Shown here piece by piece: positions 5,531 to 60,867 of a stretch of 64,000 nt of DNA (position 1 is the first letter of the stretch; each line of letters opens with the position of its first letter). Below the pieces are notes generated by a model. That model was not told the DNA's origin and did no database searches. It saw only the letters and a list, made by a program, of their open reading frames with translations. The translations under genes and the position numbers were made by a program. Source of the DNA: Gammaproteobacteria bacterium (GTDB lineage: Bacteria > Pseudomonadota > Gammaproteobacteria > CBDBBL01). The DNA is taken from the NCBI GenBank assembly GCA_965203125.1, contig CBDBBL010000018.1, forward strand, positions 162,885-226,884, given 5' to 3'.

Positions 5531-6605
5531 AGACCTCGAGAATTGAGTTGAAATAAACCAAAACACGAGGTCATTATGCAAATCAAAGGACTGCACAAGT
5601 CGATTTATAAACTATATGGATATGGACGTAAACAAGAAGTTTTAATTGAATACCGAAAAAAATATCAAACGATAGTCAGTCAGTGGGAGCGTCTGAAAAA
5701 AGCAGGCACCAATGAGAAAGAAATCCCTTCATTTGTAGGTTGCTCAAGAGCAACGTATTATCGATCTCGAAAAATATTGATCGATTTAGAACGCGGTAAA
5801 CTACCACCATCAAAAGCTAGGATTAGGCGAAACAAACCGAAATGGGGTGAGGCAGAAAAACAGTTAGTGCTTGGTGTTCGCAGAGAAAACAGCAGCTATG
5901 GCAAGTTTAAAATAACCCATATATTGAAACGAGATCATCAGTTACAGATGAGTGAAAGCACAGTAGGCAGGATATTGAAACACTTACTAAGAAAAGGCGT
6001 GATCACCAAATCTCTATCAGCACAGCGGGCAAAAAAGAAACGTAATTTCACTAAAAGTTATGCTAAGCCTTGGCAGTTCAAAAAATATGAACAAATGAAG
6101 TTAGGTGAGCATGTTCAAGTAGATCATATGACAGTACGCCACAATGGAGTAACGGTGAAGCATTTTCAGGCATGGGAGCGTAAAAGCAAATACATTGGAG
6201 CGCAGATTTACACCAATGCTAGCAGTAAGTCAGCTAGAAAGTTTTTACTCGAGCTGATAGAGCAAGCTCCGTTCGAGATCTTGTCGATACAGGTTGATGG
6301 AGGATCAGAGTTCATGGCTGAATTTGAGGATGCTTGTCGACAGCTGAATATACCGTTGTATGTTTTACCGCCAGCTAGTCCAAAGAAAAATGGAGGTGTT
6401 GAAAGAGGTAACCGAATTTTTAGAGAAGAGTTTTATGCCAAGCCTTCACTTGCAGATTCACTGGGAGCAATTCGTAATGATCTTAAAGATGCTGTGGCTA
6501 AATATAATGATTACAGACCGCATTTTTCTCTTGCAGGCTTAACTCCTTTGGCTTACATTGGGAAACATAATTCTCGAGGTGCTTGTTTGTCTCAAAACAC
6601 CTGAA
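5531..6605 (+). mobile_element. IS element (IS481-like, single DDE transposase ORF) inserted between xseA and guaB
   Basis: Imperfect terminal inverted repeats GACCTCGAGAATT (about 5532-5544) and AATTCTCGAGGTG (about 6568-6580) bracket a single transposase ORF; exact ends uncertain. Confidence 0.55.
5576..6604 (+). CDS. DDE transposase (integrase-core/rve domain; IS481-like)
   Basis: 342 aa; N-terminal HTH-like region, catalytic core with [23 protein letters not shown] and [15 protein letters not shown] (D,D,E integrase-core pattern). Confidence 0.8.
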
Positions 6606-12244: not shown

Positions 12245-14524
12245 GTGCGCCCAGCCTTTGGAGGCATCAAGGAAGAAGCTGCCGAAGCTTGAGCATGTTT
12301 GGAATGCGCTCATCAAACTAAGGAGTAAAAAAAAAATGAGTGCCTGAATCCTGTCATGAGGATTGTGTGAGCCGAAGCGGCGGTGATCTGCTGTGCATTA
12401 GCAGAGTGACGGAGCCCGTGGGAAACGGGATGTGAGGCGAGGTCGTTACGCCAAGATGCATCTCTAGGCTGAGTATTGGAAGGTTGAGGAACACGAACCG
12501 ATTAAATCGTATCTATGGGCTGAAACGTCGCCATCACCTACACGATCTAATAGGTGATATTCAAGCTGGTGAAAGAATAGATGTATGATTCTTTCACCCA
12601 AATTCTAGCATAAATGTAGGATGCTGGAAGGGTATCATGAAGAGAGCATGACTAGCTCATGATGCTTGATACAACTTGCAGAGCGCAAGGTTAAAGAATG
12701 CGATCGGCAACCTAACCAGTACACTTGAGTCCAGCATGTGGAATGGGGAAGGTTTATTGAAATGATAAGGGAATGCGACCCCAATGATCAATAAGCTGGC
12801 GGAGCTTTCGTAGTAGTCTGAGACAGGGAGAACCTGTTACATGGCGAAGGAAGGCAGTTTAAGTGATTTGTTTGGCAGATTACCTGCCTATAAAGAGGTG
12901 AAGACCTATGATAATCAGAGAAATGCAAAACAAATTAGCAAAGTGGTCTTTAGAAAATCGCGAGCGAAAGTTTGATCGATTACTAAGGATGATTGCAAAC
13001 CGGTCATGGTTGCAAGAGGCGGCTCGTGTCACGCTAGCATCATCAGGTGCTAGAACAGCAGGAGTTGATGGAGTAAACAAGCAGGTAATGGAGGGAAACC
13101 TCCTAAAAGAGTTGGCATTGATAAGTTCTGAGCTACTAGCAGGGAGCTATCAACCACAACCAGCCAAGCGAGTTTATATTCCCAAAGCTAACGGCAAACA
13201 AAGACCGCTAGGAATTCCGACATTACGAGACCGAATTGTGCAACGTGCTATGTTGATGGTTATGGACCCTATCTGGGAAAGCGACTTTCATCGCTTGTCT
13301 TATGGGTTTCGACCAGAACGCAGTGTTCATCATGCAGTCCGCACACTGAAAATTCAATTACAAGACGGTGGTTACACCTCAGGACGCTGGGTGATCGAAG
13401 GTGATCTGTCCAGCTATTTTGATACGGTGCATCACCGATTGTTAATGAAGTGTGTAAAAAAACGGATACGTGATCAACGCTTTCTGACATTGCTGTGGCG
13501 ATTCATCAAAGCAGGACATATCGACAAGGGTCTATTTAACGCAGCTAGTCGAGGGGTTCCCCAAGGCGGAGTAATCTCGCCATTATTATCCAATTTAATG
13601 CTCAATGAATTTGATCAATGGTTGGATAAAAGGAACTTGTCTAAAAAAGCACGCAAAGACCGTTGGTATTGGAATGATAGTATTAAACGGCAGCGCAACA
13701 TTGCTATCCAAAAAGGACGACAGTGGAAGCCTGCCGTTGCTTACTGTCGCTATGCAGATGATTTTGTTATAGTTGTAAAAGGAAGTAAAGCACATGCTGA
13801 GGATATTCGTAAAATGTGTCAGCAGTTTTTAGAAAGAGATCTCAAACTAACATTAAATATGGATAAAACTCATATTACACATGTTAATGATGGGTTCACT
13901 TTTCTAGGTCACCGCCTGATACGTAAGCGAGGATCCGAAGGAAGAATGCGGACTGTAACAACGATTCCTCAATGTAAGTCTAAAGCATTTGCGTTAAGCG
14001 TGAGCAAAGAGCTTACAAGTAATCATAGCGTGAATAAAACTGCCATGATAGAGAAGCTCAATCGCAAAATTATTGGTTGGGCAAATTTTTACCAACACAC
14101 TGATTTCACAGCTATTGTGTACCAGAAAATTGACAGAATAATATTCTGGAAACTAGCGCACTGGCTAGCTCGGAAATACCGAACTAGTGTCAAGTCGCTA
14201 ATGCGCAAATGGGTGAATCGACCGGAAGAAAGCAAAGCAAAAACTTGGCAGCTGTCTGGTCACAGTGAAAATGGAAAATATATCAAAGTGTCGTTACGAC
14301 GATTGGTAACCAGTCGTAAAATGACATTTCGCTGGCGTAATCCTGAAAGCAACCCGTATTTGATACGGGAAGAAGTCAGGAGCACAGTTACATCACGCTA
14401 TCATGAAATTGCAATGGCGATGCGTCACACTTAAATGGAGAGCCGTATGCGCTGAGAGGTGCACGTACGGTTCGGTGAGGAGAGATAGGGAAATAGTTCG
14501 ACTACGCCCTATCTCTTACTCTAC
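12245..14524 (+). mobile_element. Group II intron (ribozyme plus intron-encoded protein)
   Basis: 5' end GTGCG at 12245; near the 3' end a domain V-like hairpin GAGCCGTATGCG...CGTACGGTTCGG (about 14446-14476) followed by a domain VI-like hairpin; RT/maturase ORF inside. Joining 12244 to 14525 restores an uninterrupted IS26-like reading frame (MDETY-IKARGKWTYLYRAVD). Confidence 0.8.
12908..14434 (+). CDS. Group II intron reverse transcriptase/maturase (intron-encoded protein)
   Basis: 508 aa; RT domains with RPLGIPTLRDRIVQ, FDTVHH, YCRYADDFVIVV (YADD active site), and maturase X domain (IIGWANFYQH). No obvious HNH endonuclease motif at the C-terminus. Confidence 0.9.
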   Translation: MIIREMQNKLAKWSLENRERKFDRLLRMIANRSWLQEAARVTLASSGARTAGVDGVNKQVMEGNLLKELALISSELLAGSYQPQPAKRVYIPKANGKQRPLGIPTLRDRIVQRAMLMVMDPIWESDFHRLSYGFRPERSVHHAVRTLKIQLQDGGYTSGRWVIEGDLSSYFDTVHHRLLMKCVKKRIRDQRFLTLLWRFIKAGHIDKGLFNAASRGVPQGGVISPLLSNLMLNEFDQWLDKRNLSKKARKDRWYWNDSIKRQRNIAIQKGRQWKPAVAYCRYADDFVIVVKGSKAHAEDIRKMCQQFLERDLKLTLNMDKTHITHVNDGFTFLGHRLIRKRGSEGRMRTVTTIPQCKSKAFALSVSKELTSNHSVNKTAMIEKLNRKIIGWANFYQHTDFTAIVYQKIDRIIFWKLAHWLARKYRTSVKSLMRKWVNRPEESKAKTWQLSGHSENGKYIKVSLRRLVTSRKMTFRWRNPESNPYLIREEVRSTVTSRYHEIAMAMRHT

Positions 14525-14976
14525 TCAAGGCACGTGGAAAATGGACTTATTTGTATCGAGCTGTTGATAAGTCAGGTAAGACAATTGACTTTATGCTCAG
14601 TGAAAAACGAGATAAAGAAGCAGTACTAAAGTTCTTCAAAAAAGCGATCAATTCACATGGAAGTCCTGAGACAGTGAACATTGATAAGAGTGGTTCCAAC
14701 ACCTCAGCACTGAATCATATCAATGCACTATATTGGGTTGCTGGCTTATGGATGCTAGTGATTAATATTAGGCAGAATAAGTATCTCAATATTATTGTAG
14801 AGCAAGACCACCGAGGAATTAAGCGAGTTTTGAAAACTTCCACTTGGTTCAAATCATTTTCAAATGCTGCCGATACTTTGGCAGGAATTGAACTTCACCG
14901 TATGCTTAAAAAAGGCCAGATGAAAAACTCTGATGGAATGACTGTTTGGGAGCAATTTTATTCGCTTGCAGCATAA
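14525..14976 (+). CDS. IS6-family transposase, exon 2 (C-terminal DDE part)
   Basis: Translation ...GKWTYLYRAVDKSGKTIDFMLSEKRDKEAVLKFF...VNIDKSG...IEQDHRGIKRV...GIELHRMLKKGQ matches the IS26 Tnp C-terminal catalytic region (YLYRAVD...INTDKAP...ECDHGKLKR...GIEVMRALRKGQ). Confidence 0.8.
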
Positions 14977-20274: not shown

Positions 20275-21372
20275 TTACTCAACAGATAAAACAATCGGTT
20301 CTAAGGTTGCCGCGGTCTTATCAGTTGTAGCTGTATGCGTATTCCAGCCTAGGCGAGCTGGGTTGTCACTATTTAAATATAAATCATGTGTACTTGCGTA
20401 AGCTTTGATTAGCTCAATGTCAAAACTTAGTTGAGGGCTGATGTAGTGTTTGGTGAGCTCAACCAATGCAGTATAACCTCTCCCTGTGGGTAAGAATTGT
20501 AATAGCCAGTCATCATCCAGTGGCGAAATACGAATGCGGAAATGACTTTGACATTCGGTGTAACTTTCTCCAAGCATGGTATCGACGCCTAGCTGATTGA
20601 ATTGGGCGTTGATATCTGATGTGCTGGGCAGTTTGAGCTGTTGTGTTGTAGGTAAGTTGAGTTGCTTCTCTTGCAGTTCTAGAATTTGAATGCTGATATG
20701 GGAGTGATTGCTGAAGAAGTAATCAGTGAGTAAATCTTGTAACCCTTGTGCAGAATGGATTTCGCTGCTCAGTAAGAAATCGTAGTATAAAAAGGTGTCG
20801 GGGTGGACGATTTTGTCGGGTGATGGCGTTTGCTCATTTTGTGACGTTGTTGTGCCAATTAAACTCTGTAGGGCTACTGTGAACGCATCTGCTTCTAGGG
20901 TGTTAGATTGGCGCCTGGTGGTTTCATAATCGAGAAATACGCGATATTTGCGTTGCGCCAAATGGTAAAAAGAGATGGCGCGATGATTGAATAAATCATA
21001 GAAATTCCTGAGCGCAAACTCATTATAGTGTATGGCAAATAAGAGTTCTTCAGTAGCGTAAATGGGTAGGCTACCATTGACACCTGTTAGCCCCATAAAA
21101 CTTACTTGCATGACATCGGGTCGATTGGCCTGTCGTTTCCTGAGTTTGACAATATCTGTGGGAATACGGGTTAAATTGTTCTCACTGATGAAGTTAAGTT
21201 GTTCTTGTTCGGGTAAGAAATCTCGTCCATTCACTTTCTTTGCAAGCTCAGGGTGTTGTTGTGCTAGATAGAAATGTTGCCAGTCGATTAAACGGATTGC
21301 TTGCAGTAACGAAAATTGTGCAGGCGTTTCGTAGAGTCGGGCTAAAACATGATGATGAGGGAGTTGGGTCAT
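20275..21372 (-). CDS. tssG: Type VI secretion baseplate protein TssG-like
   Basis: 365 aa; N-terminal FSLLQAIRLID resembles the TssG (ImpH/VasB) FxFFQAVRLLE signature; 4-nt overlap with upstream tssF as usual for tssF-tssG. Confidence 0.7.
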   Translation of the reverse strand: MTQLPHHHVLARLYETPAQFSLLQAIRLIDWQHFYLAQQHPELAKKVNGRDFLPEQEQLNFISENNLTRIPTDIVKLRKRQANRPDVMQVSFMGLTGVNGSLPIYATEELLFAIHYNEFALRNFYDLFNHRAISFYHLAQRKYRVFLDYETTRRQSNTLEADAFTVALQSLIGTTTSQNEQTPSPDKIVHPDTFLYYDFLLSSEIHSAQGLQDLLTDYFFSNHSHISIQILELQEKQLNLPTTQQLKLPSTSDINAQFNQLGVDTMLGESYTECQSHFRIRISPLDDDWLLQFLPTGRGYTALVELTKHYISPQLSFDIELIKAYASTHDLYLNSDNPARLGWNTHTATTDKTAATLEPIVLSVE

Positions 21373-23213
21373 AATAATGCTTTACTGCCTAGCCTAGGTG
21401 CCCACTGATACAGTATTTTTCTCTTACCGCGATTTTTAACGGTTAACTGTGTAAAGGAGTTGAGAGTCACAGAAAGTGAGAAAAGTCGTTCTAATACGCT
21501 AGCAATGAGGTATGCAGATTGACCAACGAGTCGCTCTTCATCGAGCTCTAGTATGACTTCAACGCCTTGGCAGAAACTGGTAGTGCCAGCGGTGTTGTTT
21601 GGGTTTCTAGCAACTGTTTGGCGGCTGTCAATGCTGATGAGAGCGTGAGATAGACTTTCTAATAGCGTATTGCTTGGGTGACTGAAGAGGGAGAAAAATG
21701 CTTTTAGCTGTTCAATATCATGGTTGATCAAGAGGCTGTTAAAATTGATTCGTAGCAGTGCAATCGTTGACCATAGACTATTTTGATGGGCGTTGAGTCG
21801 CAAGGTTCTGGTTGGCTTGGTTAGGCACTGAATGTTCACTGACTGCTTGCCTTCACTGAGTTTAAGTCTTGGTTCTGAGCCACCAAAAGGAAGTTGATTG
21901 ACTAAGTCTCGATTGGTGCATAAAGCAGTGGCGGATAGTACGTGAGTTTCTTTATTAGCCAAGTCAAGTTGTGTGTCGACTAATGCAATAGAAACATTGG
22001 AACCGTGATCAATTTCTCCGTCAATGGGTTCTCCTTGTTGGCGATGTGTTTGGTAGAATCGAGTGTTGTCATTGGCTAGATGTTGGAATTTCTGTGCATA
22101 TAGTGGCAACGCTTCTTTGCTTTCGCCTTGTGAGTTCGTAATCTCGACTTGAGTGAGCTGGTGGATTTCTTTGTGAGTTGGATTGTCATGATCTGGGGTG
22201 AGTGGGTAGTCGGGTGTTTGATGTGTGATTGTGATGGGTGTTAAGCGATGCGAGAAAAGATTGATCATGGGGGCGCAGTTTAACGCAAAGTTTTCTTTGC
22301 TAAGATATTGCTCAAGTTCGCTATGTGCCTTTTGGAAATAAAAATGCAGGCAAAATTCATTACTGGAAGATGCTTGATTGAATATTTTGTCTGAGATACT
22401 TTCAGGTAGTGTGATATCTAAGAAGAGAAATTTTTCAGGAAATGTCAGTAGTTCGGTAAGTAGTGTGTGTGCTGCGGGGGTTCGTTTATCATGAGGCAGT
22501 AATAGCGTCTCGTGATCGAGACCGGCTGCTTGCAAATGAGATAGTGTCAGTGGTTCAACTTGTGTTTGTCGCTTATTGCTAATGGCAATCTGCACAGTAT
22601 CCGTTAGTAATGTTTCATAGAGCCGATAGACAAGACTTACTTGACCTTTTAGATGGATTCGTAAGCGAGTGAGCGGTAATGTTTCGAGTTTGATATTGTG
22701 TGAAGTGGCTTGGATTGTGAGGGATAATGTGCTGTTTGCTTGTGTGTAGTTGCCAATCATCGGGGTATGCTGATTGTGTGGAGAGAATAATGCTTGGGAA
22801 ATTGTGAAAGGAATGATGGGTGTATCGAACCCTAATTGAAATCGACAAGGACTGCCATTAACAGGGCGAGATTCAATTTCACTTCCTTTTTTAAGTTGCA
22901 GAACGGTCGTCACGCTAGGCGACGGGTTAAATTGAATGATTGCCATCGGTGGGATCGGGCTGTTAAATTGTGGTGCGAGTGTATTGAGCAAGCTTTCTGC
23001 GACTAGGGGGAATTGATCTTCTAGCACTTCGCGTGTTTTACTATTCATCAGTGCAACGGCTTCAATCAGGCGAGAAATATCTGGGTTCTCAACTTTGTCC
23101 GGAGTCATGTTGAGGTGCCCAGCAAGTTTTGGGTAGGCTTTGGCGAAGCTACTTGCTTGGTGGCGAATGTAGCTCAGTTCTTTGTTGAATAACTTTAATA
23201 ATTGATCGCTCAT
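21369..23213 (-). CDS. tssF: Type VI secretion baseplate protein TssF
   Basis: 614 aa; N-terminus LLKLFNKELSYIRHQASSFAKAYPKLAGHLNM...DISRLIEAVALM matches the TssF (ImpG/VasA) pattern LLxYYxxELxYLRxxGxEFAxxYPKIAxRL...DPxVERLLEGFAFL. Confidence 0.8.
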   Translation of the reverse strand: MSDQLLKLFNKELSYIRHQASSFAKAYPKLAGHLNMTPDKVENPDISRLIEAVALMNSKTREVLEDQFPLVAESLLNTLAPQFNSPIPPMAIIQFNPSPSVTTVLQLKKGSEIESRPVNGSPCRFQLGFDTPIIPFTISQALFSPHNQHTPMIGNYTQANSTLSLTIQATSHNIKLETLPLTRLRIHLKGQVSLVYRLYETLLTDTVQIAISNKRQTQVEPLTLSHLQAAGLDHETLLLPHDKRTPAAHTLLTELLTFPEKFLFLDITLPESISDKIFNQASSSNEFCLHFYFQKAHSELEQYLSKENFALNCAPMINLFSHRLTPITITHQTPDYPLTPDHDNPTHKEIHQLTQVEITNSQGESKEALPLYAQKFQHLANDNTRFYQTHRQQGEPIDGEIDHGSNVSIALVDTQLDLANKETHVLSATALCTNRDLVNQLPFGGSEPRLKLSEGKQSVNIQCLTKPTRTLRLNAHQNSLWSTIALLRINFNSLLINHDIEQLKAFFSLFSHPSNTLLESLSHALISIDSRQTVARNPNNTAGTTSFCQGVEVILELDEERLVGQSAYLIASVLERLFSLSVTLNSFTQLTVKNRGKRKILYQWAPRLGSKALL

Positions 23214-23311
23214 GGTTTGGTATTATATACCTAGCATACGTGAAGACACCAGCTCGATAATTCATTAATTATATGCTATATTTTGCAAGTTGTTTGATTG
23301 GAAGGTTTGTG

Positions 23312-48284: not shown

Positions 48285-48674
48285 ATGAATAACAAAGTAA
48301 CGACAGAGTATATGGGTGCGGAGCAGAAAGCATATTTCGAAAAGATGCTGTTGGAAAAGCGCCAGCAGTTGATGGAAGACGTTGATCTTACGGTTAAAGA
48401 TATGAAAGATGGTGAGACGGCTTTGCCTGATCCTATTGATCGTGCTGCCGTTGAAGAAGAATTCCGTGTTGAATTGCGAAAAAGAGATCGTGAACGTAAG
48501 TTGTTAAAAAATATTGATGCGGCGTTGAAGCGAATTATAGCGGATGATTTTGGGTATTGTGAGCTGTGTGGTGCTGATATTGGTGTCAAGCGTTTAGAGG
48601 CGCGTCCGACAGCGACGCAGTGTATTGATTGCAAAACGTTTGATGAGCAAAAAGAAAAGAAAGAGCGAGTGTGA
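48285..48674 (+). CDS. dksA: RNA polymerase-binding transcription factor DksA
   Basis: 129 aa; coiled-coil with the conserved acidic tip region and a C4 zinc finger (CELCGADI...CIDCK). Confidence 0.85.
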   Translation: MNNKVTTEYMGAEQKAYFEKMLLEKRQQLMEDVDLTVKDMKDGETALPDPIDRAAVEEEFRVELRKRDRERKLLKNIDAALKRIIADDFGYCELCGADIGVKRLEARPTATQCIDCKTFDEQKEKKERV

Positions 48675-49045: not shown

Positions 49046-50854
49046 GTGAGAATAACATCGTCTAAGCGTGTTGCAATTTTGCTAGCATGTGGTGCGACAA
49101 GCATTTTGGCTTCTCCTTTGAGGCCTGAGCTGACTGCGCTTATCCAGGGAGGGAACACAACTACATTTTGGGGTAGTGTGCTTGAGCCTTTGTTTGCGAG
49201 CAAAGATAAAGTCACTTTCTTTGATCTACAGTTGGAACACAATCATTTTTCTCAAACCAAAAACCCCAGTATATTCAGTCTAGGTTTTGGACAAAGAGCC
49301 CTTCGAAATCATCATGTCATTGGTGGATACCTGTTTGCAGATGTTGCAGAAACGGCTGCGAATGAGCGTTATTTTGTATTAAGCCCAGGTGCTGATTATT
49401 ATAAAGGTGCATTCTCTGTGGCTGTGAATGGGTATGTGCCAGTTGGTTCAAGTCACATGGTTGATGGGCGATATGTTCATGATGGTGGGGATGAGGATTA
49501 CCGGGATATCCAGAGTAATGGAGATAACTCTTATAATGTCACCTATGGTTTTTATGACTTCCAAGAGCAGATGCAATATGGAGGAGATTTATCCTTTGGT
49601 TATCATCCTATAAATAGTGATTGGGGTGGTAAAATAGGACTATACCATTTTGGTAGAAGTGATACACGTTCGCGTCAAGGTGAAAAGATGCAGCTTAACT
49701 ATGCAGCTTCTTCTCATGTGCAGGTTCGCTTGGAGGATCGTTTTGATAATTTAGATCACAACCGTGTGCTTGTCGGTGCTGTATTTAGCTTTGGGCATGA
49801 TTTGAAAGATCGTGATTTGAGAGCTCAATTAACAGCGCCAATTTATCGTAATCTAGATGTAAACACAACTGATGCTGGTTTAGGGTCAGGTTATCAACGT
49901 CTTAATAGAATAAGTGATGAGCAGAACTTTGCTCATGCTTATCTTATTGGCTATAGCTCTATTCCTACTGGTGCTGGTGTTGTCTCTACCTACACTCAAG
50001 CTAAGGATCGGGAAGCGCATGATAATAATAACAATGGTTATAATGATGCGGCTTATTTGTTTGAGGGTGGGCGATCCTACAATGTTGATTTCTCGACTAC
50101 AGGGCATGTTTTGACTGGATCTCAGAGTATTATTGGTGTAACCGAAGGGTTTCATTCTATCTCAGATGGTGGGGTGAGTGCTCCGACACTAATCAGTGCT
50201 CAATCTAAAGGAATTGATGTGCAATCCTCAGGGGAAGAAGGCTCTACTGGAGGTGTGCTAGAAGGATTTAAATTAGAGCTAACAAATGCATCTGCGACAG
50301 ATGGAATAACGATTGATGCGACATCTGCTGGAGAGAGGGTGTCTATCAAGAATGTAAGTGTTAGTGATCAAGTTGCTACAGGTGATTTAACAGGAATTGA
50401 AGTGGCAGGAGGGGCTGATGTAGCAATTAATAATGTTACATTGAATCTGTTGACTAAAAAAGAAACACAACCTTTGTTACAGGGTGTTAATGTCACTGGG
50501 AATACTAATGTGGCAATTAGTGGCGGTGTTTTCAACTTGAGAGCGGATAAAGCTGTAGCAAATATTCGGATTAAAGGTGTTGTTAATACAGGAAGCAGTA
50601 ATACAGTTGATGTTGATGGTTTGGCCCTTTCTTTTTATAAAAACACAGGGGGGCTTTATTTTAATAATGCGGTGGGAGGCACGAAGTTTTTCCGAAATAA
50701 TAGCTCAGGGAGTATAACTGTGCGTAATACTACTGCAAAATTATACAGTGATTTGTCTGGCACGCTAGATCCATCGGCTTTGAGTGCTGATTATTTTTCA
50801 TCGGGGAATAATATTATTTCTTCTGGGAATAAGTTTAATGATACTGATGTTTAA
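49046..50854 (+). CDS. Secreted/outer-membrane protein (beta-strand-rich N-terminal half, beta-helix-like C-terminal half)
   Basis: 602 aa; signal peptide MRITSSKRVAILLACGATSILAS; N-terminal half with alternating-hydrophobic strands (VLVGAVFSFG); C-terminal half with parallel-beta-helix-like G/N/T-rich repeats. Family not recognised. Confidence 0.45.
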   Translation: MRITSSKRVAILLACGATSILASPLRPELTALIQGGNTTTFWGSVLEPLFASKDKVTFFDLQLEHNHFSQTKNPSIFSLGFGQRALRNHHVIGGYLFADVAETAANERYFVLSPGADYYKGAFSVAVNGYVPVGSSHMVDGRYVHDGGDEDYRDIQSNGDNSYNVTYGFYDFQEQMQYGGDLSFGYHPINSDWGGKIGLYHFGRSDTRSRQGEKMQLNYAASSHVQVRLEDRFDNLDHNRVLVGAVFSFGHDLKDRDLRAQLTAPIYRNLDVNTTDAGLGSGYQRLNRISDEQNFAHAYLIGYSSIPTGAGVVSTYTQAKDREAHDNNNNGYNDAAYLFEGGRSYNVDFSTTGHVLTGSQSIIGVTEGFHSISDGGVSAPTLISAQSKGIDVQSSGEEGSTGGVLEGFKLELTNASATDGITIDATSAGERVSIKNVSVSDQVATGDLTGIEVAGGADVAINNVTLNLLTKKETQPLLQGVNVTGNTNVAISGGVFNLRADKAVANIRIKGVVNTGSSNTVDVDGLALSFYKNTGGLYFNNAVGGTKFFRNNSSGSITVRNTTAKLYSDLSGTLDPSALSADYFSSGNNIISSGNKFNDTDV

Positions 50855-50898
50855 CTACTAAAGATGGAGGAGGACGGGTGTTATTTACAGGAGAGCTA

Positions 50899-53800
50899 AT
50901 GAAGGGTGTTTGCAGGCTTCTAGTGTCTGTAGTACTGCTGTTCTTTGTTAGTTCTGTATTTGCGACGCCTGAATTTTTTACTGTATCCTCGCAGTCTGTT
51001 CTCGTTGGAGTATCTAAGAATTTCGCAACAGATGGTTTTGTATACTCCAATGATAGCAGTAATATTACGAGTATTACAGCTACTATTTCTGGGAACGGGG
51101 TTAGTGGACAGAGTATACCAAGCACGGGAAATTTTAATGGTCTTTCTTTGAGTGCTTCTCTGGCTGGAAGTTTTTCTTTTAGTTACAGTGGTGCTACAGG
51201 TTTAAGTAATGGCTCTTACACAATTACTGTAACCGCAGTTGATGGGAGTGGTACAGCATCAACGAACTTTACTCTAGTAGTTAGTGGGGCAACATCTGCA
51301 CCGAACATTAGTGCTCCAAGCACACATACCTTTACCAGTGGTAGCTCTGGCAGTTATGTTGTATCTATTAATGGGGTGAGTGGTGTTGCCATTTCTAGTA
51401 TTGACCAAGTAAGACTGACTGAACCAGACAGTAACACTGTTAATTTAAGTACAAATACTTTACCTCCTGCGACTCATAAAGGTTTTTACTACACCATTAC
51501 TGGTCTTGGAACTTCTTCAGCAACGTTGACAGTTCATTATAAGGGCACATTAATAGCTGCTGGCGCTTATCAAGTATTTGTCGTTGCGAATAGCAGTGGC
51601 GCCACAAATAATGGAACAACGAATATCACATTGAACCATACGGGGCTTCCAGTGATCAATGTGCCAGATCCATTGCCAACTGTTGTGAGTGGTACGGCCA
51701 ATACAAGTATGACGGGTGGAACAGTGGAGGCCCCTGCTTCTCCAGATCACAGTGCCCATTTGACGAGTATCACTGTCACGTTGACTTCCCCAAGTGGTAG
51801 TGCATCTGATTTAGGGATTACGGAAAGTAGTGCAAGTAGTAATCAGGGGTTCTACTACAGCACGAGTAGCAGTGTTTCTGGTTCGATTTCACAAACAATT
51901 ACATTAAAGTATGATGGAACTACTACTGATAGTGCAGGAACTTATCAAATAACTATTACTGCTTTAGGGACAGGGGATACAGATAGTGCATCTCAAACTT
52001 ATAATCTAGTTGTATCTCATACTGGGGCGCCAGTAATTACAGTGCCCAGTGACTCTTCGGTAACTATTGGAACTATGTCTTCTAATATCGCAGCAGGTTC
52101 TGTTGATTATGCGGAGGGAACGAATCAGCACAGTACCACTCTTTCTATTAAAGAAAGTGATGAAGATGATGCCAATTATGTGACTATTCCTGCTTGTAAT
52201 GCCACAGAAAAAGGGTTTTGTTATAATAGCAGTGGAGCGGGGGATACGGCTACATTTACGTTGAATTATAATGGCTCGATAATAAATGTAACCAATTATA
52301 CCGTAAAGATAGTTGCGTCTGATAGTGGTGATGGAGTAGATGCTGAAAGTAGTTTTCAGATTGCAGTAGCGCATCAATCAGGAGCGCCGACGGTGACCCT
52401 ATCCCAAGCGTTGACAGACAATAGTGACACCCTCAATCTGACGAATGGAACAGAACTAACAGCAACGACGGTGGCGACAGTGAGTGTGCCCAGTCATGGC
52501 ACACTGGATACCGACGTGAGCGTGACGGCGACGGGTAACATCAGTGGGCTAACGATTACGAAACCGCTGTCAGGAAGTACAGGTGGGAACGTAACGGTTG
52601 CCTATGACCCCAGTGGGAACAATATCATCCCGGATGGAGACCAAACGATTAAGATAGCAGCGACAGGTGTGAATGGAGAATCAACAAGCCGCACCTTCAC
52701 CTTAAACGTAGCGCATCAATCAGGAGCGCCGACGGTGACCCTATCCCAAGCGTTGACAGACAATAGCGACACCCTCAATCTGACGAATGGAACAGAACTA
52801 ACAGCAACAACGGTGGCGACAGTGAGTGTCCCAGTCATGGCACACTGGATACCGACGTGAGCGTGACGGCGACGGGTAACATCAGTGGACTAACGATTAC
52901 GAAACCGCTGTCAGGAAGTACAGGTGGGAACGTAACGGTTGCCTATGACCCCAGTGGGAACAATATCATCCCAGATGGAGAGCAAACGATTACGATAGCA
53001 GCGACAGGAGTGAATGGAGAATCAACAAGCCGCACCTTCACCTTAAACGTAGCGCATCAATCAGGAGCGCCGACGGTGACCCTATCCCAAGCGTTGACAG
53101 ACAATAGCGACACCCTCAATCTGACGAATGGAACAGAACTAACAGCAACAACGGTGGCGACAGTGAGTGTGCCCAGTCATGGCACACTGGATACCGACGT
53201 GAGCGTGACGGCGACGGGTAACATCAGTGGACTAACGATTACGAAACCGCTGTCAGGAAGTACAGGTGGGAACGTAACGGTTGCCTATGACCCCAGTGGG
53301 AACAATATCATCCCAGATGGAGAGCAAACGATTACGATAGCAGCGACAGGAGTGAATGGAGAATCAGCAAGCCGCACCTTCACCTTAAACGTAGCGCATC
53401 AATCAGGAGCGCCGACGGTGACCCTATCCCAAGCGTTGACAGACAATAGTGACACCCTCAATCTGACGAATGGAACAGAACTAACAGCAACGACGGTGGC
53501 GACAGTGAGTGTGCCCAGTCATGGCACACTGGATACCGACGTGAGCGTGACGACGACGGGTAACATCAGTGGACTAACGATTACGAAACCGCTGTCAGGA
53601 AGTACAGGTGGGAACGTAACGGTTGCCTATGACCCCAGTGGGAACAATATCATCCCAGATGGAGACCAAACGATTACGATAGCAGCGACAGGAGTGAATG
53701 GAGAATCAGCAAGCCGCACCTTCACCTTAAACGTAGCGCATCAATCAGGAGCGCCGACGGTGACCCTATCCCAAGCGTTGACAGACAATAGTGACACCCT

Positions 53801-56800
53801 CAATCTGACGAATGGAACAGAACTAACAGCAACGACGGTGGCGACAGTGAGTGTACCCAGTCATGGCACACTGGATACCGACGTGAGCGTGACGACGACG
53901 GGTAACATCAGTGGACTAACGATTACGAAACCGCTGTCAGGAAGTACAGGTGGGAACGTAACGGTTGCCTATGACCCCAGTGGGAACAATATCATCCCGG
54001 ATGGAGAGCAAACGATTACGATAGCAGCGACAGGAGTGAATGGAGAATCAGCAAGCCGCACCTTCACCTTAAACGTAGCGCATCAATCAGGAGCGCCGAC
54101 GGTGACCCTATCCCAAGCGTTGACAGACAATAGTGACACCCTCAATCTGACGAATGGAACAGAACTAACAGCAACGACGGTGGCGACAGTGAGTGTGCCC
54201 AGTCATGGCACACTGGATACCGACGTGAGCGTGACGACGACGGGTAACATCAGTGGACTAACGATTACGAAACCGCTGTCAGGAAGTACAGGTGGGAACG
54301 TAACGGTTGCCTATGACCCCAGTGGGAACAATATCATCCCGGATGGAGAGCAAACGATTACGATAGCAGCGACAGGAGTGAATGGAGAATCAGCAAGCCG
54401 CACCTTCACCTTAAACGTCGCGCATCAATCAGGAGCGCCGACGGTGACCCTATCCCAAGCGTTGACAGACAATAGCGACACCCTCAATCTGACGAATGGA
54501 ACAGAACTAACAGCAACGACGGTGGCGACAGTGAGTGTGCCCAGTCATGGCGAACTGGATAGCGACGTGAGCGTGACGACGACGGGTAACATCAGTGGAC
54601 TAACGATTACGAAACCGCTGTCAGGAAGTACAGGTGGGAACGTAACGGTTGCCTATGACCCCAGTGGGAACAATATCATCCCAGATGGAGAGCCAAACGA
54701 TTACGATAGCAGCGACAGGAGTTAATGGAGAATCAGCAAGCCGCACCTTCACCTTAAACGTCGCGCATCAATCAGGAGCGCCGACGGTGACCCTATCCCA
54801 AGCGTTGACAGACAATAGCGACACCCTCAATCTGACGAATGGAACAGAACTAACAGCAACGACGGTGGCGACAGTGAGTGTGCCCAGTCATGGCGAACTG
54901 GATAGCGACGTGAGCGTGACGACGACGGGTAACATCAGTGGACTAACGATTACGAAACCGCTGTCAGGAAGTACAGGTGGGAACGTAACGGTTGCCTATG
55001 ACCCCAGTGGGAACAATATCATCCCAGATGGAGAGCAAACGATTACGATAGCAGCGACAGGAGTTAATGGAGAATCAGCAAGCCGCACCTTCACCTTAAA
55101 CGTAGCGCATCAATCAGGAGCGCCGACGGTGACCCTATCCCAAGCGTTGACAGACAATAGTGACACCCTCAATCTGACGAATGGAACAGAACTAACAGCA
55201 ACGACGGTGGCGACAGTGAGTGTGCCCAGTCATGGCGAACTGGATAGCGACGTGAGCGTGACGACGACGGGTAACATCAGTGGACTAACGATTACGAAAC
55301 CGCTGTCAGGAAGTACAGGTGGTAACGTAACGATTGCCTATGACCCCAGTGGGAACAATATCATCCCGGATGGAGAGCAAACGATTACGATAGCGGCGAC
55401 AGGTGTGAATGGAGAATCAGCAAGCCGCACCTTCACCTTAAACGTCGCGCATCAATCAGGAGCGCCGACGGTGACCCTATCACAAGCGTTGACAGACAAT
55501 AGCGACACCCTCAATCTGACGAGTGGAACAGAACTAACAGCAACGACGGTGGCGACAGTGAGTGTCCCCAGTCATGGCGAACTGGATACTGACGTGAGCG
55601 TGACGACGACGGGTAACATCAGTGGACTAACGATTACGAAACCGCTGTCAGGAAGTACAGGTGGGAACGTAACGGTTGCCTATGACCCCAGTGGGAACAA
55701 TATCATCCCAGATGGAGAGCAAACGATTACGATAGCAGCGACAGGAGTTAATGGAGAATCAGCAAGCCGCACCTTCACCTTAAACGTCGCGCATCAATCA
55801 GGAGCGCCGACGGTGACCCTATCACAAGCGTTGACAGACAATAGTGACACCCTCAATCTGACGAGTGGAACAGAACTAACAGCAACGACGGTGGCGACAG
55901 TGAGTGTCCCCAGTCATGGCGAACTGGATAGCGACGTGAGCGTGACGACGACGGGTAACATCAGTGGACTAACGATTACGAAACCGCTGTCAGGAAGTAC
56001 AGGTGGGAACGTGACGGTTGCCTATGACCCCAGTGGGAACAATATCATCCCAGATGGAGAGCAAACGATTACGATAGCAGCGACAGGTGTGAATGGAGAA
56101 TCAACAAGCCGCACCTTCACCTTAAACGTAGCGCATCAATCAGGAGCGCCGACGGTGACCCTATCACAAGCGTTGACAGACAATAGTGACACCCTCAATC
56201 TGACGAATGGAACAGAACTAACAGCAACGACGGTGGCGACAGTGAGTGTGCCCAGTCATGGCACACTGGATACCGACGTGAGCGTGACGGCGACGGGTAA
56301 CATCAGTGGACTAACGATTACGAAACCGCTGTCAGGAAGTACAGGTGGTAACGTAACGGTTGCCTATGACCCCAGTGGGAACAATATCATCCCAGATGGA
56401 GAGCAAACGATTACGATAGCAGCGACAGGTGTGAATGGAGAATCAACAAGCCGCACCTTCACCTTAAACGTAGCGCATCAATCAGGAGCGCCGACGGTGA
56501 CCCTATCACAAGCGTTGACAGACAATAGTGACACCCTCAATCTGACGAATGGAACAGAACTAACAGCAACGACGGTGGCGACAGTGAGTGTGCCCAGTCA
56601 TGGCACACTGGATACCGACGTGAGCGTGACGGCGACGGGTAACATCAGTGGACTAACGATTACGAAACCGCTGTCAGGAAGTACAGGTGGTAACGTAACG
56701 ATTGCCTATGACCCCAGTGGGAACAATATCATCCCGGATGGAGAGCAAACGATTACGATAGCGGCGACAGGTGTGAATGGAGAATCAACAAGCCGCACCT

Positions 56801-59127
56801 TCACCTTAAACGTAGCGCATCAATCAGGAGCGCCGACGGTGACCCTATCACAAGCGTTGACAGACAATAGTGACACCCTCAATCTGACGAATGGAACAGA
56901 ACTAACAGCAACAACGGTGGCGACAGTGAGTGTCCCCAGTCATGGCGAACTGGATACTGACGTGAGCGTGACGACGACGGGTAACATCAGTGGACTAACG
57001 ATTACGAAACCGCTGTCAGGAAGTACAGGTGGGAACGTAACGGTTGCCTATGACCCCAGTGGGAACAATATCATCCCAGATGGAGAGCAAACGATTACGA
57101 TAGCAGCGACAGGAGTTAATGGAGAATCAGCAAGCCGCACCTTCACCTTAAACGTAGCGCATCAATCAGGAGCGCCGACGGTGACCCTATCCCAAGCGTT
57201 GACAGACAATAGCGACACCCTCAATCTGACGAATGGAACAGAACTAACAGCAACGACGGTGGCGACAGTGAGTGTGCCCAGTCATGGCACACTGGATACC
57301 GACGTGAGCGTGACGGCGACGGGTAACATCAGTGGACTAACGATTACGAAACCGCTGTCAGGAAGTACAGGTGGTAACGTAACGATTGCCTATGACCCCA
57401 GTGGGAACAATATCATCCCAGATGGAGAGCAAACGATTACGATAGCAGCGACAGGAGTTAATGGAGAATCAGCAAGCCGCACCTTCACCTTAAACGTCGC
57501 GCATCAATCAGGAGCGCCGACGGTGACCCTATCACAAGCGTTGACAGACAATAGTGACACCCTCAATCTGACGAGTGGAACAGAACTAACAGCAACGACG
57601 GTGGCGACAGTGAGTGTGCCCAGTCATGGCACACTGGATACCGACGTGAGCGTGACGACGACGGGTAACATCAGTGGACTAACGATTACGAAACCGCTGT
57701 CAGGAAGTACAGGTGGGAACGTAACGATTGCCTATGACCCCAGTGGAAACAATATCATCCCGGATGGAGAGCAAACGATTACGATAGCGGCGACAGGAGT
57801 TAATGGAGAATCAACAAGCCGCACCTTCACCTTAAACGTAGTGCATCAATCAGGAGCGCCAAATATCAACTTACTTGGTAATATCGGAACATCTGGTGTA
57901 GAGGTGACAACGGGATCTCCTCAAGAAAGTGCATTGAACTTAGCTGATATATCTGTAACACCTCATCAAGCAGATATTACGGAAGTGACATTAACTAATG
58001 GAAGTGGTGGTACTTTATCGGATGATCAAATAGATTCGTTGAGATTTGAGCCAAAATCAGGAGAGAATCGTACAGTGACGCTGAGATATGACGGCACTGT
58101 TCCCTTGCCGGCAGGGACTCATGTTCTGATGATTACGGCAAAAAATGGAAGTGATGAAGCTCATACGACAACAGTGGACTTTGATTTGATTGTTCATGCA
58201 ACCGACTCAATTCCGCCATTAGGTGGTGAGGTAACATATGGAATTTCAAATACGAATGTGGATACAGTAACGATCACCGATGGTGATAACTCGTTAGATT
58301 TGGTGCATACGCGTATCTTGATCAAGAATAGCGCTGGTACTGAAACAGTAGCAACTCTGGCAGGGGCTAATGAACCAGCAAATCATGGATATCATTTTAC
58401 TATGAATAATAAACAGATCACGTTGCATTATAATGGAGATCACGCGGAGGGCTCTTCACTGGCTCCAAATACATATAAAACAGAGATAGAAATACCGCGT
58501 GCTGGTGATTCTACACTAACAAGCCCACTTGGTACTTTAACTGTGTCTTATGCATCTGGGAAACCAACGGTTGATATTCACAACCCACCTCATATTACAA
58601 ATAGAGAAGGTGGCTATAATGAGATAATTGCAACGGTGACACCTGCTGATTTGAATACTATAAAGTCATTAACGATTACTGGTCTACCGTCGGGTATTAC
58701 ACATACTGTTAACGAGGATAAGACATCGCTTTCTATTGCCTATAATGGACAGAATGATTTACATGTGGGTAATCATGATATTACAGTAACAGCTACAGGT
58801 AGTAATGATGAGCAGCGAGTAGCGCAGTTTACACTAGAGGTGCGCTCAGGTGTTGTTTCTAGTCCAATTCATGTGGTTAATAATATGAATTTTTTTCATA
58901 ATCTAAGAATACAGTGGGTTGAACATGGAGTCGATCATAATCATTTGATTTATTATCCAATGCATGTTGGTGGTGGACATAAGGTTGATATTTCTCCAGA
59001 TATTGGAAGTCATATTACGATACAAAATAATCATAATAGTTATGAAGTTACGGCAGCACGTAGTGGGAAAAAATTGCAGTGTGGAGGAAATTCTGTTGGG
59101 AGTGCTCACTGTGCTTGGGTTTCTTAG
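50899..59127 (+). CDS. Giant repetitive surface protein (putative adhesin with about 16 tandem 114-aa Ig-like repeats); reading frame interrupted by two compensating 1-nt indels
   Basis: Strong RBS (GGAGGAGG) and signal peptide MKGVCRLLVSVVLLFFVSSVFA. The three listed ORFs (50878-52860, 52857-54725, 54649-59127) encode one collinear protein; the first and third are in the same frame. Repeat period is 342 nt, except one unit of 341 nt (C-run shortened near 52829-52833) and one of 343 nt (extra C near 54693). Confidence 0.7.
52366..57840 (+). repeat. Tandem array of about 16 near-identical 342-bp coding repeats
   Basis: Unit begins GTAGCGCATCAATCAGGAGCGCCGACGGTGACCCTATC; unit starts read at 52366, 52708, 53049, 53391 ... 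give a 342-nt period; units more than about 95% identical. Confidence 0.9.
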
Positions 59128-59155: not shown

Positions 59156-59878
59156 TTGGAGGTGTTCAGCATGAAAATGAAAATAGCAGTAATTAGCGGA
59201 CAAGAGGTGGTAGGAGATATTATTACGCTATCTTCTTGGAGATCTGCAGGCGCACTTATGTTAAGTGCATCAAGTTTTGGTGCGTCATCATTGATTGCTG
59301 GATTAACTGCTTCTATCACAGCACCTATTTTGACACCGATAGGTTTGGCAGCTGGCGCTTTATTTGTCCTTGAAAATCTCTGGACTCCTAGAAGGTCTCA
59401 TCAGAACAGTTTTGAGTATGATCAGAATTTTAATGGTAGTTTGCTCAGATCTGGAGGAAATATAAAGTTCGAAGTTTTTCCCTATCATTTTTGGGGTTTT
59501 TGGGGTTGGCAATTAATTTTGAGGGCACATGGTGCCAATCAGAATATCACTAAGTTATGGCCTAATCGTTCTTCCAGTTGGGGGAAGCGAGTGAGTGGTG
59601 ATCGCATAATTACTCGTGAGAACCAGCAAGTTAGCGCGGAAAGATTTCGGGCGAGCATGGTTGGTGTGTGGGGTGTTGATCGTGGAAATATTATGTTTGT
59701 AGAGGAGAGGCAAGATGGGGTTGCTGTGCATGTGGAAACCTATAATAGGTTTGGTTTTTGTGGAACTGATCAGAAAATACGTGATTTTGTTAGCAAACAG
59801 AATGATCCTGAAAATGATCCTTTAGCTTCCCCTTTTGGTGGTGGTATTTACGATATTAACACCCACATGTATGATTAA
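59156..59878 (+). CDS. Hypothetical membrane-associated protein
   Basis: 240 aa; N-terminal hydrophobic/Ser-Ala-rich segment, Trp/Gly-rich middle (FWGFWGWQ); no recognised family. Confidence 0.4.
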   Translation: MEVFSMKMKIAVISGQEVVGDIITLSSWRSAGALMLSASSFGASSLIAGLTASITAPILTPIGLAAGALFVLENLWTPRRSHQNSFEYDQNFNGSLLRSGGNIKFEVFPYHFWGFWGWQLILRAHGANQNITKLWPNRSSSWGKRVSGDRIITRENQQVSAERFRASMVGVWGVDRGNIMFVEERQDGVAVHVETYNRFGFCGTDQKIRDFVSKQNDPENDPLASPFGGGIYDINTHMYD

Positions 59879-59892
59879 GTCAGGTAGAAATA

Positions 59893-60867
59893 ATGGGTAA
59901 GAAAACTCGTATTGCTGAGTTGGAGCGAAAACGTCTAGAGCTTGAAGGTATTATGGCGAGAAAGGATGGCTCTGTTAAAGATTTGTTGGAAGAGTGTTCT
60001 AGGACTTATGGTGGTGAGAGGCAGATGCTTAATTTGTCTGATTTGGCCAGTGTGTTTGCTAAACTGCATGAAAAAGTTGTGAGCATGACAGCGGCTAATG
60101 TTGAATTAACGCATCAGAGAGATACTCTTTTGGTTTCTGAGAGAGCTTTGCATACTAGGCATAAAAGATCACAAGAAAGTATAGCTGCATTACAAAGTGG
60201 GTTGCACACTTTATCCGAGTATAGCCAAGGACAAGACATGGCAGCTCGAGCTTTGCAAGCGCAATACACTTCAGATAAATACCTAGCAGATATTCGTCGA
60301 TCAGTTCAGGAAGGCTTGATACCTTTCGCTTCTGTGCCTAGTTTTCAAAGAAGCAGTTCTTCAGCTATGCGTGAGTTATGTGGGCAGCAGCACTTGGAAG
60401 AGCGTGCGAGTCTTTCTTATAGGCTGGAACAAGAAAATGATCAATTAAAGTCCAGACTTCGTGCGCTATACTCACATCAGCGCAAACTGGGTGATGCAGT
60501 TGTGGCTAGAGATGCAGCTATTGAGAAATTAGAAGAAAGTATCGCCAAAAGAGATGTAGAGATTACAGCACACCAACAGACTCATATCACATTGCAGCGC
60601 TGTGTGGATCGTTATGATGGTGTGGCATCCCATCCTCCAGCTAGGCGAAACACGATGTGTGGTGATGACGATAGTTTTTCAGAGTGGAGAAAGCAGGTAA
60701 GCTCATTATCCCCGTCTCCAGGCAGCAATTTTGCTCGTGGTCAGGGTGCCGAGGAATCAAATTCTGATACTTCCCATTCTTGTTTTGGTGATACTTCGAG
60801 CATTGTGGGGGGGGAGCATATGTCTGGCTTATCGGACCATGACGAGGCAGATAGTGATAGTCAGTAA
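59893..60867 (+). CDS. Hypothetical coiled-coil protein with Ser/acidic C-terminal tail
   Basis: 324 aa; heptad-like charged N-terminus (RIAELERKRLELEGIMARK), C-terminal [11 protein letters not shown]; no recognised family. Confidence 0.4.
   Translation: MGKKTRIAELERKRLELEGIMARKDGSVKDLLEECSRTYGGERQMLNLSDLASVFAKLHEKVVSMTAANVELTHQRDTLLVSERALHTRHKRSQESIAALQSGLHTLSEYSQGQDMAARALQAQYTSDKYLADIRRSVQEGLIPFASVPSFQRSSSSAMRELCGQQHLEERASLSYRLEQENDQLKSRLRALYSHQRKLGDAVVARDAAIEKLEESIAKRDVEITAHQQTHITLQRCVDRYDGVASHPPARRNTMCGDDDSFSEWRKQVSSLSPSPGSNFARGQGAEESNSDTSHSCFGDTSSIVGGEHMSGLSDHDEADSDSQ

Follow-up and report, generated by a model that had tools for sequence, protein, structure and literature searches.

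The 64,000-nucleotide (nt) segment of the gammaproteobacterial contig CBDBBL010000018.1 analyzed here (referred to below as the window, with positions counted from its first base) contains a giant repeat gene on the forward strand, at 50899-59127, which codes for a protein of 2,742 amino acids (aa) and is split into three open reading frames (ORFs) by two single-base indels. These indels are probably residual consensus errors, left in a repeat that had been spanned by long reads, and the gene itself is probably intact in the organism. Whether intact or frameshifted, the locus deserves to be annotated as a single gene for a giant surface protein instead of three hypothetical proteins, and the indels need to be checked against the reads before any biology is made to rest on them. 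Nothing in these findings would much surprise a specialist: apparent frameshifts inside the repeats of giant adhesins are common in draft genomes.

The three ORFs lie on the same strand, at 50878/50899-52860 (frame 1), 52857-54725 (frame 0), and 54649-59127 (frame 1). In silico repair, with one base added at 52830 and one C removed at 54693, joins them into one ORF of 8,229 nt and 2,742 codons with 0 internal stops, so this is a single gene. Two-unit stretches of the repeat contain 0 stops in the correct frame versus 26 and 8 in the other two. Besides the two indels, the 8.2-kb frame carries no other lesion, neither an in-frame stop nor a larger deletion. The array inside the gene was reported by Tandem Repeats Finder (TRF) as a single one, at 52366-57860, with a period of 342, 16.1 (16.07) copies, 98% matches, and a score of 10330; its strength is far above chance expectation. 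Each 342-bp unit (114 aa) corresponds in the unit alignment to one predicted immunoglobulin (Ig)/cadherin-like domain, and the spacings between unit starts, anchored on the unit start, are 342, 341, four times 342, 343, and then nine times 342.

The ATG at 50899 is preceded, 3 nt upstream, by AGGAGAG, and a GTG at 50878 provides an alternative start. By inspection of the translation, the N terminus is a predicted Sec-type signal peptide (MKGVCRLLVSVVLLFFVSSVFA, encoded at 50899-50964): its n-region is positively charged, its core is hydrophobic, and a V-F-A motif marks the predicted cleavage site, before TPEFF. The original prediction, made from the letters alone, of one signal-peptide-bearing giant gene with about 16 near-identical 342-bp units, read as three ORFs owing to two single-base indels of opposite sign, thus stands on all these counts. 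In the public annotation, the gene is covered by three separate proteins, P0005, P0006, and P0007. Every 342-bp unit contains, as read by inspection, an in-frame AGGAG-N8-GTG (codons SGAPTV), for example at 54774-54789; this Shine-Dalgarno-like arrangement probably explains why the 1,446-aa protein P0007 has its public start inside unit 8, and internal initiation could take place at such sites within the units.

The first indel lies in unit 2 (52708-53048), which is 341 nt long: a base is missing at 52830 (junction 52829-52830, forward strand), where the sequence reads GTGAGTGT^CCCAGT. Apart from this deletion, a single substitution separates unit 2 from unit 3, in which the missing position is occupied by G, so the base lost from unit 2 was most parsimoniously a G beside the CCC run. 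At the position before CCC, the other 15 units have G in 11 cases, C in 3, and A in 1; contraction of C4 to C3, as an alternative origin of the deletion, is less parsimonious. The second indel lies in unit 7 (54417-54759), which is 343 nt long and reads GAGAGCCAAACG where other units read GAGAGCAAACG, with an extra C at 54693-54694 on the same strand; apart from this C, units 7 and 8 are identical. Both indels named in the original prediction, where they were described as a shortening of CCCC to CCC at 52829-52833 and an extra C near 54693, are present, but loss of G is favored over contraction of a C run at the first site, and the second site is a single C that became CC, not a homopolymer. 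The longest homopolymer in the unit, CCCC at column 243, is unaffected in 16 of 16 units, and each unit contains 12 runs of at least 3 nt, this untouched CCCC included.

The two sites, separated by 1,863 nt, lie at 1.9 and 3.8 kb from the start of the gene. They had been described as compensating, which is true of the arithmetic only. After the deletion, frame 1 meets a TGA at 52858-52860, 28 nt downstream, so the second indel gives no translational rescue; frame 0, into which the second indel falls, stops at 54723-54725. What the opposite signs do entail is that any recombinational deletion that removes both sites restores the frame.

The case for residual assembly errors starts from the array itself. 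With 342-bp units that are 98% identical, an array of 5.5 kb inside a contig would be spannable by long reads (or clones) alone; short reads would not be uniquely placeable in it, and, since short-read polishing cannot work at sites where short reads have no unique placement, consensus errors would be left uncorrected. Around the two indel sites, the match to the following unit is perfect for 357 and 380 bp; the second value is the longest such match in the array, and the two values rank at the 74th and 87th percentiles among array positions. Elsewhere in the window, ~40 ORFs were scanned against Pfam or NCBIfam, and none of them is frameshifted; both disruptions therefore fall within the 5.5-kb array, which makes up 8.6% of the window. 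About 10 of these ORFs have no family match; in nearly all others, the match spans the full profile, and the few that fall short are insertion sequence (IS) remnants and one VipB paralogue. A generally low-quality, indel-rich assembly is ruled out by the same scan.

The composition of the differences among units points in the same direction. Changes private to one unit comprise 2 indels and 5 substitutions. In neutral bacterial evolution, the share of indels relative to substitutions is roughly 1:10 to 1:20, so the private indel share is far above the neutral expectation and counts toward an artifact. No Logan (public read-run) source is listed for any of the 8 window proteins found in the protein collection, a weak hint that public short reads for this DNA may not exist. 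Errors that remain after short-read polishing occur mostly in repeats and cause frameshifts (Wick & Holt 2022, PMC8812927). The indels described here resemble those errors in being single-base events that produce apparent frameshifts and are confined to a repeat in an otherwise clean sequence; they differ in lying outside long homopolymers (PMC8812927). Accordingly, of the alternatives named in the original prediction, sequencing or assembly error is plausible and favored, but an error of homopolymer length in particular cannot be demonstrated.

Several observations weigh against this reading and in favor of a genuine, very recently inactivated pseudogene, in which both indels are real and the second one arose neutrally after the first; this is a possible but clearly less likely explanation. 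Neither indel is at the longest homopolymer of the unit, and a change from C to CC, outside any long homopolymer, is not the classic length error of long reads. Decayed genes are real in the window: it contains a 5'-truncated transposase gene of the IS256 family and a fragment of an IS6-family one, so genuine pseudogenes do occur in this genome. Large dispensable genes for surface proteins are big mutational targets and frequent pseudogenes, and the public annotation, with its separate P0005, P0006, and P0007, would fit a broken gene. The product would then be cut to ~650 aa, comprising the signal peptide, four unique domains, and ~1.4 repeats. Such a history requires two independent indels against merely 5 private substitutions in the array and no other lesion in 8.2 kb. 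It also has to accommodate the fact that both sites fall where the array is hardest to map and that none of the ~40 other ORFs checked is frameshifted.

As a special case of the pseudogene, genuine indels might constitute an OFF state that recombination can reverse, which appears very unlikely. If a unit on the 5' side of 52830 recombined with one on the 3' side of 54694, by a single unequal crossover or by gene conversion, both indels would be lost together and a shorter, intact gene would result. The opposite signs of the indels allow this, as deletion of both restores the frame, and the 98%-identical units do exchange sequence, with four gametes in 102 of 153 site pairs (see below). Against it, no mechanism would recreate the OFF state about as often as it is lost, hence this would not be true phase variation, and the 90%-identity clusters of 8 window proteins contain no sequence from another organism that could serve for comparison.

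Classical phase variation by slipped-strand mispairing at short C tracts, the other alternative raised in the original prediction, is still more improbable. C residues are indeed involved at both indels, CCC(C) at the first and C to CC at the second. Known contingency tracts are usually at least 7 nt long. The tracts here have 3-4 and 1-2 nt, in a unit with 12 runs of at least 3 nt, one of them the unaffected CCCC; the array contains dozens of similar runs that equal or exceed these tracts of 1-4 nt in length. Instead of one hypermutable tract in the 5' part or the promoter, there are two sites in the middle of the gene, 1.9 and 3.8 kb from its start, neither with a hypermutable tract, and the two switches would have to flip together. 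This part of the original prediction is therefore not supported. Programmed recoding is scarcely credible. The full-length protein would be made if ribosomes shifted by -1 at 52830 and by +1 at 54693, as shifts of opposite sign would restore the frame. However, a -1 shift works only within 52767-52860, and this interval contains no X_XXY_YYZ heptamer; around the second site (54646-54725), there is neither a stop nor a rare codon nor any other distinctive feature; and, the indels aside, the flanking sequence does not differ from that of the other units, which are read without any shift.

The repaired protein is modular throughout. It consists of modules of ~115 aa (4 unique, 16 amplified, and 3 unique ones) followed by a tail of 86 aa. 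The unique domains D1-D4, each of ~105-127 aa, are encoded at 50965-52365, the tandem array at 52366-57860, and the unique domains C1-C3 at 57838-58866, all on the forward strand. In the internal alignment (A1), identity between the unique modules and the repeat unit is 18-35%, and the motif Y-x-G...Y-x-I-T-A...F-T-L-x-V is common to both. This organization suggests a long, rod-like adhesin, on the surface or secreted, that is built from 23 Ig/cadherin-like beta-sandwich domains; the adhesin-like label given in the original prediction is consistent with such domains. The 86-aa C-terminal domain (58867-59124, forward strand) is rich in His and has two Cys residues near its end (CGGNSVGSAHC); it had no match in Pfam or NCBIfam and no homologue in an exhaustive HMMER search.

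The predicted fold draws on several signals taken together. The Ig-like Pfam families Big_3_3 and FixG_C were significant when summed over the repeats, with no single stretch passing the threshold. Sequence and profile searches of PDB with the repeat protein returned nothing significant (profile E values of ~0.4 or worse). An AlphaFold model of the unit was all-beta and of low confidence, with a predicted local distance difference test (pLDDT) score of 53; a Foldseek search with this low-confidence model gave E values of ~0.01 or worse, to cadherin, dystroglycan, Rib, PKD, and SraP domains.

Homologues proved equally elusive. Word-indexed searches of 5.8 billion proteins, including one with a composite query of the N terminus, one unit, and the C terminus, returned the protein itself alone. 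Exhaustive HMMER searches with one unit and the C-terminal part against 1.84 billion representative proteins found the protein itself and four weak matches, with E values from 2e-10 to 3e-4. These four remote matches are to repeat proteins with HYR, He_PIG, Big_9, or cadherin-like domains. By these searches, the giant protein is a sequence orphan, with no real homologue detectable among the 1.84 billion representatives.

Near-identical DNA repeats whose copy number varies are well known from the alpha C/Rib proteins of streptococci, SasG/Aap, Bap/Esp, and Legionella Lcl. The protein described here is similar to them in having one Ig-like domain per repeat (a predicted fold in this case), 98% identity of the repeats at the DNA level, and a mosaic array. 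It belongs to none of these families by sequence, as it has no Pfam Rib, G5, or Bap match above the per-domain threshold; it also has no LPXTG motif, and its host is Gram-negative, as seen from genes for a beta-barrel outer-membrane protein and a type VI secretion system. The giant adhesins exported by type I secretion systems (T1SS), such as LapA, SiiE, MpIBP, and Legionella RtxA, are comparable in their long chain of Ig-like domains (again a predicted fold here), amplified central array, and Gram-negative hosts. Unlike the LapA/SiiE-type adhesins, this protein has a predicted N-terminal Sec signal peptide and no RTX (HemolysinCabind) repeats, and no genes for an ABC transporter, a membrane-fusion protein, or TolC were found within the window. 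Its identification as a T1SS adhesin with RTX repeats or bacterial Ig-like (BIg) domains is ruled out by these three features.

The 16 units differ at 23 variable sites, of which 13 are synonymous and 10 non-synonymous, a pattern that appears compatible with coding constraint. In the four-gamete test, all four allele combinations were present in 102 of 153 informative site pairs. This result supports the view that the units are mosaics, as expected from repeated gene conversion and unequal crossing-over, although chimeric assembly could be another source of the mosaic pattern. By the same processes, unequal recombination and gene conversion between units, the length of the array would change. 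The recombination within the array that had been proposed from the near-identity of the repeats agrees with these mosaic variants, seen in a single sequence.

The amplified units also stand apart in their codon usage. Their GC content is 0.53, their GC content at third codon positions (GC3) is 0.54 (range, 0.52-0.54), and their T content at third positions is 0.19; Thr, Ala, Ser, Pro, and Leu codons that end in T are nearly missing from the array. GC3 is 0.24-0.30 in the seven unique Ig-like domains (0.25-0.29 in D1-D4 and 0.24-0.30 in C1-C3), 0.19 in the C-terminal domain, and 0.28-0.43 in the neighboring genes. The boundary in codon usage, between 52366-57860 on one side and 50965-52365 plus 57838-59124 on the other, coincides exactly with the array. 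The jump in GC3 could result from GC-biased gene conversion or from a foreign origin of the amplified module, and this discontinuity offers a natural test case for either process in bacterial tandem repeats. High expression was ruled out as its cause, given that the GC3 of rplM and rpsI is 0.23-0.32, versus 0.52 for the array.

Directly upstream of the giant gene is a gene for an inverse autotransporter, which the original prediction did not mention. This gene (49046-50854, forward strand) codes for the 602-aa protein P0004, which matches the Pfam beta-barrel family IAT_beta (PF11924) with 33.7 bits (gathering threshold, 22.3) and an E value of 3.6e-8, its residues 43-254 being aligned to positions 65-253 of the 279 in the profile; the precomputed Pfam annotation agrees with this assignment. 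By inspection, its N terminus is a signal peptide, possibly with a lipobox (LLAC). P0004 thus has the predicted signal peptide followed by an IAT_beta domain, the 12-strand barrel that is characteristic of inverse autotransporters (type Ve). Its C-terminal ~350 aa belong to no recognized family. Word-indexed searches with the whole protein and with the barrel half returned P0004 alone, a sequence search of PDB gave nothing significant, and a single-sequence AlphaFold model was unusable (pLDDT, 33.5). A 21-nt duplication is present at 50792-50832 within the P0004 gene.

The giant gene begins 44 nt downstream of the P0004 stop codon (TAA, 50852-50854), in another frame and with its own Shine-Dalgarno sequence and signal peptide. 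An origin as the split passenger of an ancestral fused inverse autotransporter gene is ruled out by this canonical signal peptide of its own. For the inverse autotransporters ZirT, SinH, and Yfr4, the barrel-less Ig-superfamily proteins encoded downstream have been shown or proposed to be substrates (Heinz et al. 2016, PMC4943183); these shown or proposed substrates are ZirS/ZirU for ZirT and the giant Rat-like proteins RatA/RatB for SinH or Yfr4 (PMC4943183). The arrangement seen here is similar to ZirT/ZirS and SinH/Rat (PMC4943183) in that an inverse autotransporter barrel gene is followed by a co-oriented gene for a giant, repetitive, barrel-less protein with predicted Ig-type domains and a signal peptide. 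By analogy, the giant protein would be exported by Sec and would then reach the cell surface, possibly with the help of the P0004 barrel, as in the ZirT/ZirS and SinH/Rat types. Such a two-partner type Ve system is the best available mechanism of surface delivery, proposed with low confidence and as a mechanism rather than as membership in a family.

Two points count against this partnership. In ZirT/ZirS and SinH/SinI, the partners share Ig-superfamily domains, whereas no such similarity is detectable here: comparison of the region after the P0004 barrel with the domains of the giant protein gave an hhalign probability of 0.1 and a BLASTP E value of 0.72. In addition, P0004, with ~350 aa of its own after the barrel, may be an independent adhesin. 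If the partnership were real, it would extend this arrangement to a distant lineage, with the length of the substrate tuned by a 16-unit array. A broader scenario, in which the indels are real and the locus represents a new two-partner type Ve system of a deep-branching Legionellales-like gammaproteobacterium, with the gene in an OFF state that one crossover could reverse and with the GC3 jump, from ~0.27 in the other domains to 0.54 in the array, produced by long-running GC-biased conversion, is very unlikely.

Two further orphan ORFs follow the giant gene in the same orientation. The first one (59156-59878) starts 28 nt after the stop codon of the giant gene, encodes at most 240 aa with hydrophobic segments and no family match, and is possibly in the same operon. 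The second one (59893-60867; 324 aa) has a coiled-coil-like sequence with an acidic, Ser-rich tail and had sub-threshold coiled-coil matches alone. P0004, the giant gene, and these two orphans are flanked by dksA (48285-48674) on one side and by housekeeping genes, among them anmK, on the other. Counts of promoter-like and terminator-like sequences were at the level of shuffled sequence and thus uninformative about an operon. At the three loci of distant relatives that were examined, no giant gene was found downstream of dksA (3 of 3).

Of the 10 window proteins that were looked up, DksA among them, 8 are present in the protein collection, all from one contig, and their 90%-identity clusters contain no other organism. 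The relatives of DksA are at most 63% identical to it, the best ones being from metagenome-assembled genomes of Legionellaceae and Legionellales, at 60-63%. The source of this DNA is therefore a poorly sampled gammaproteobacterial lineage.

Several mobile elements are found elsewhere in the window. In addition to the IS256-family (Transposase_mut) ORF at 32607-33398, which is 5' truncated (profile positions 140-377 of 379, with no N-terminal part upstream), and the 141-aa IS6/IS240 DDE fragment at 14551-14976, there is an ORF with an rve_3 integrase core at 5576-6604. A group II intron occupies 12908-14524, with a reverse transcriptase/maturase ORF at 12908-14434 and a match to the Rfam family Intron_gpII at 14438-14524. 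The type VI secretion genes tssG, tssF, tssA, tssB, and tssC lie within 20275-28892; a second, shorter VipB-like ORF, at 27651-28892 on the opposite strand, covers part of the N-domain profile. A transfer-messenger RNA (tmRNA) gene was identified at 36958-37331, with the tag peptide ANESDYGVMAQAA.

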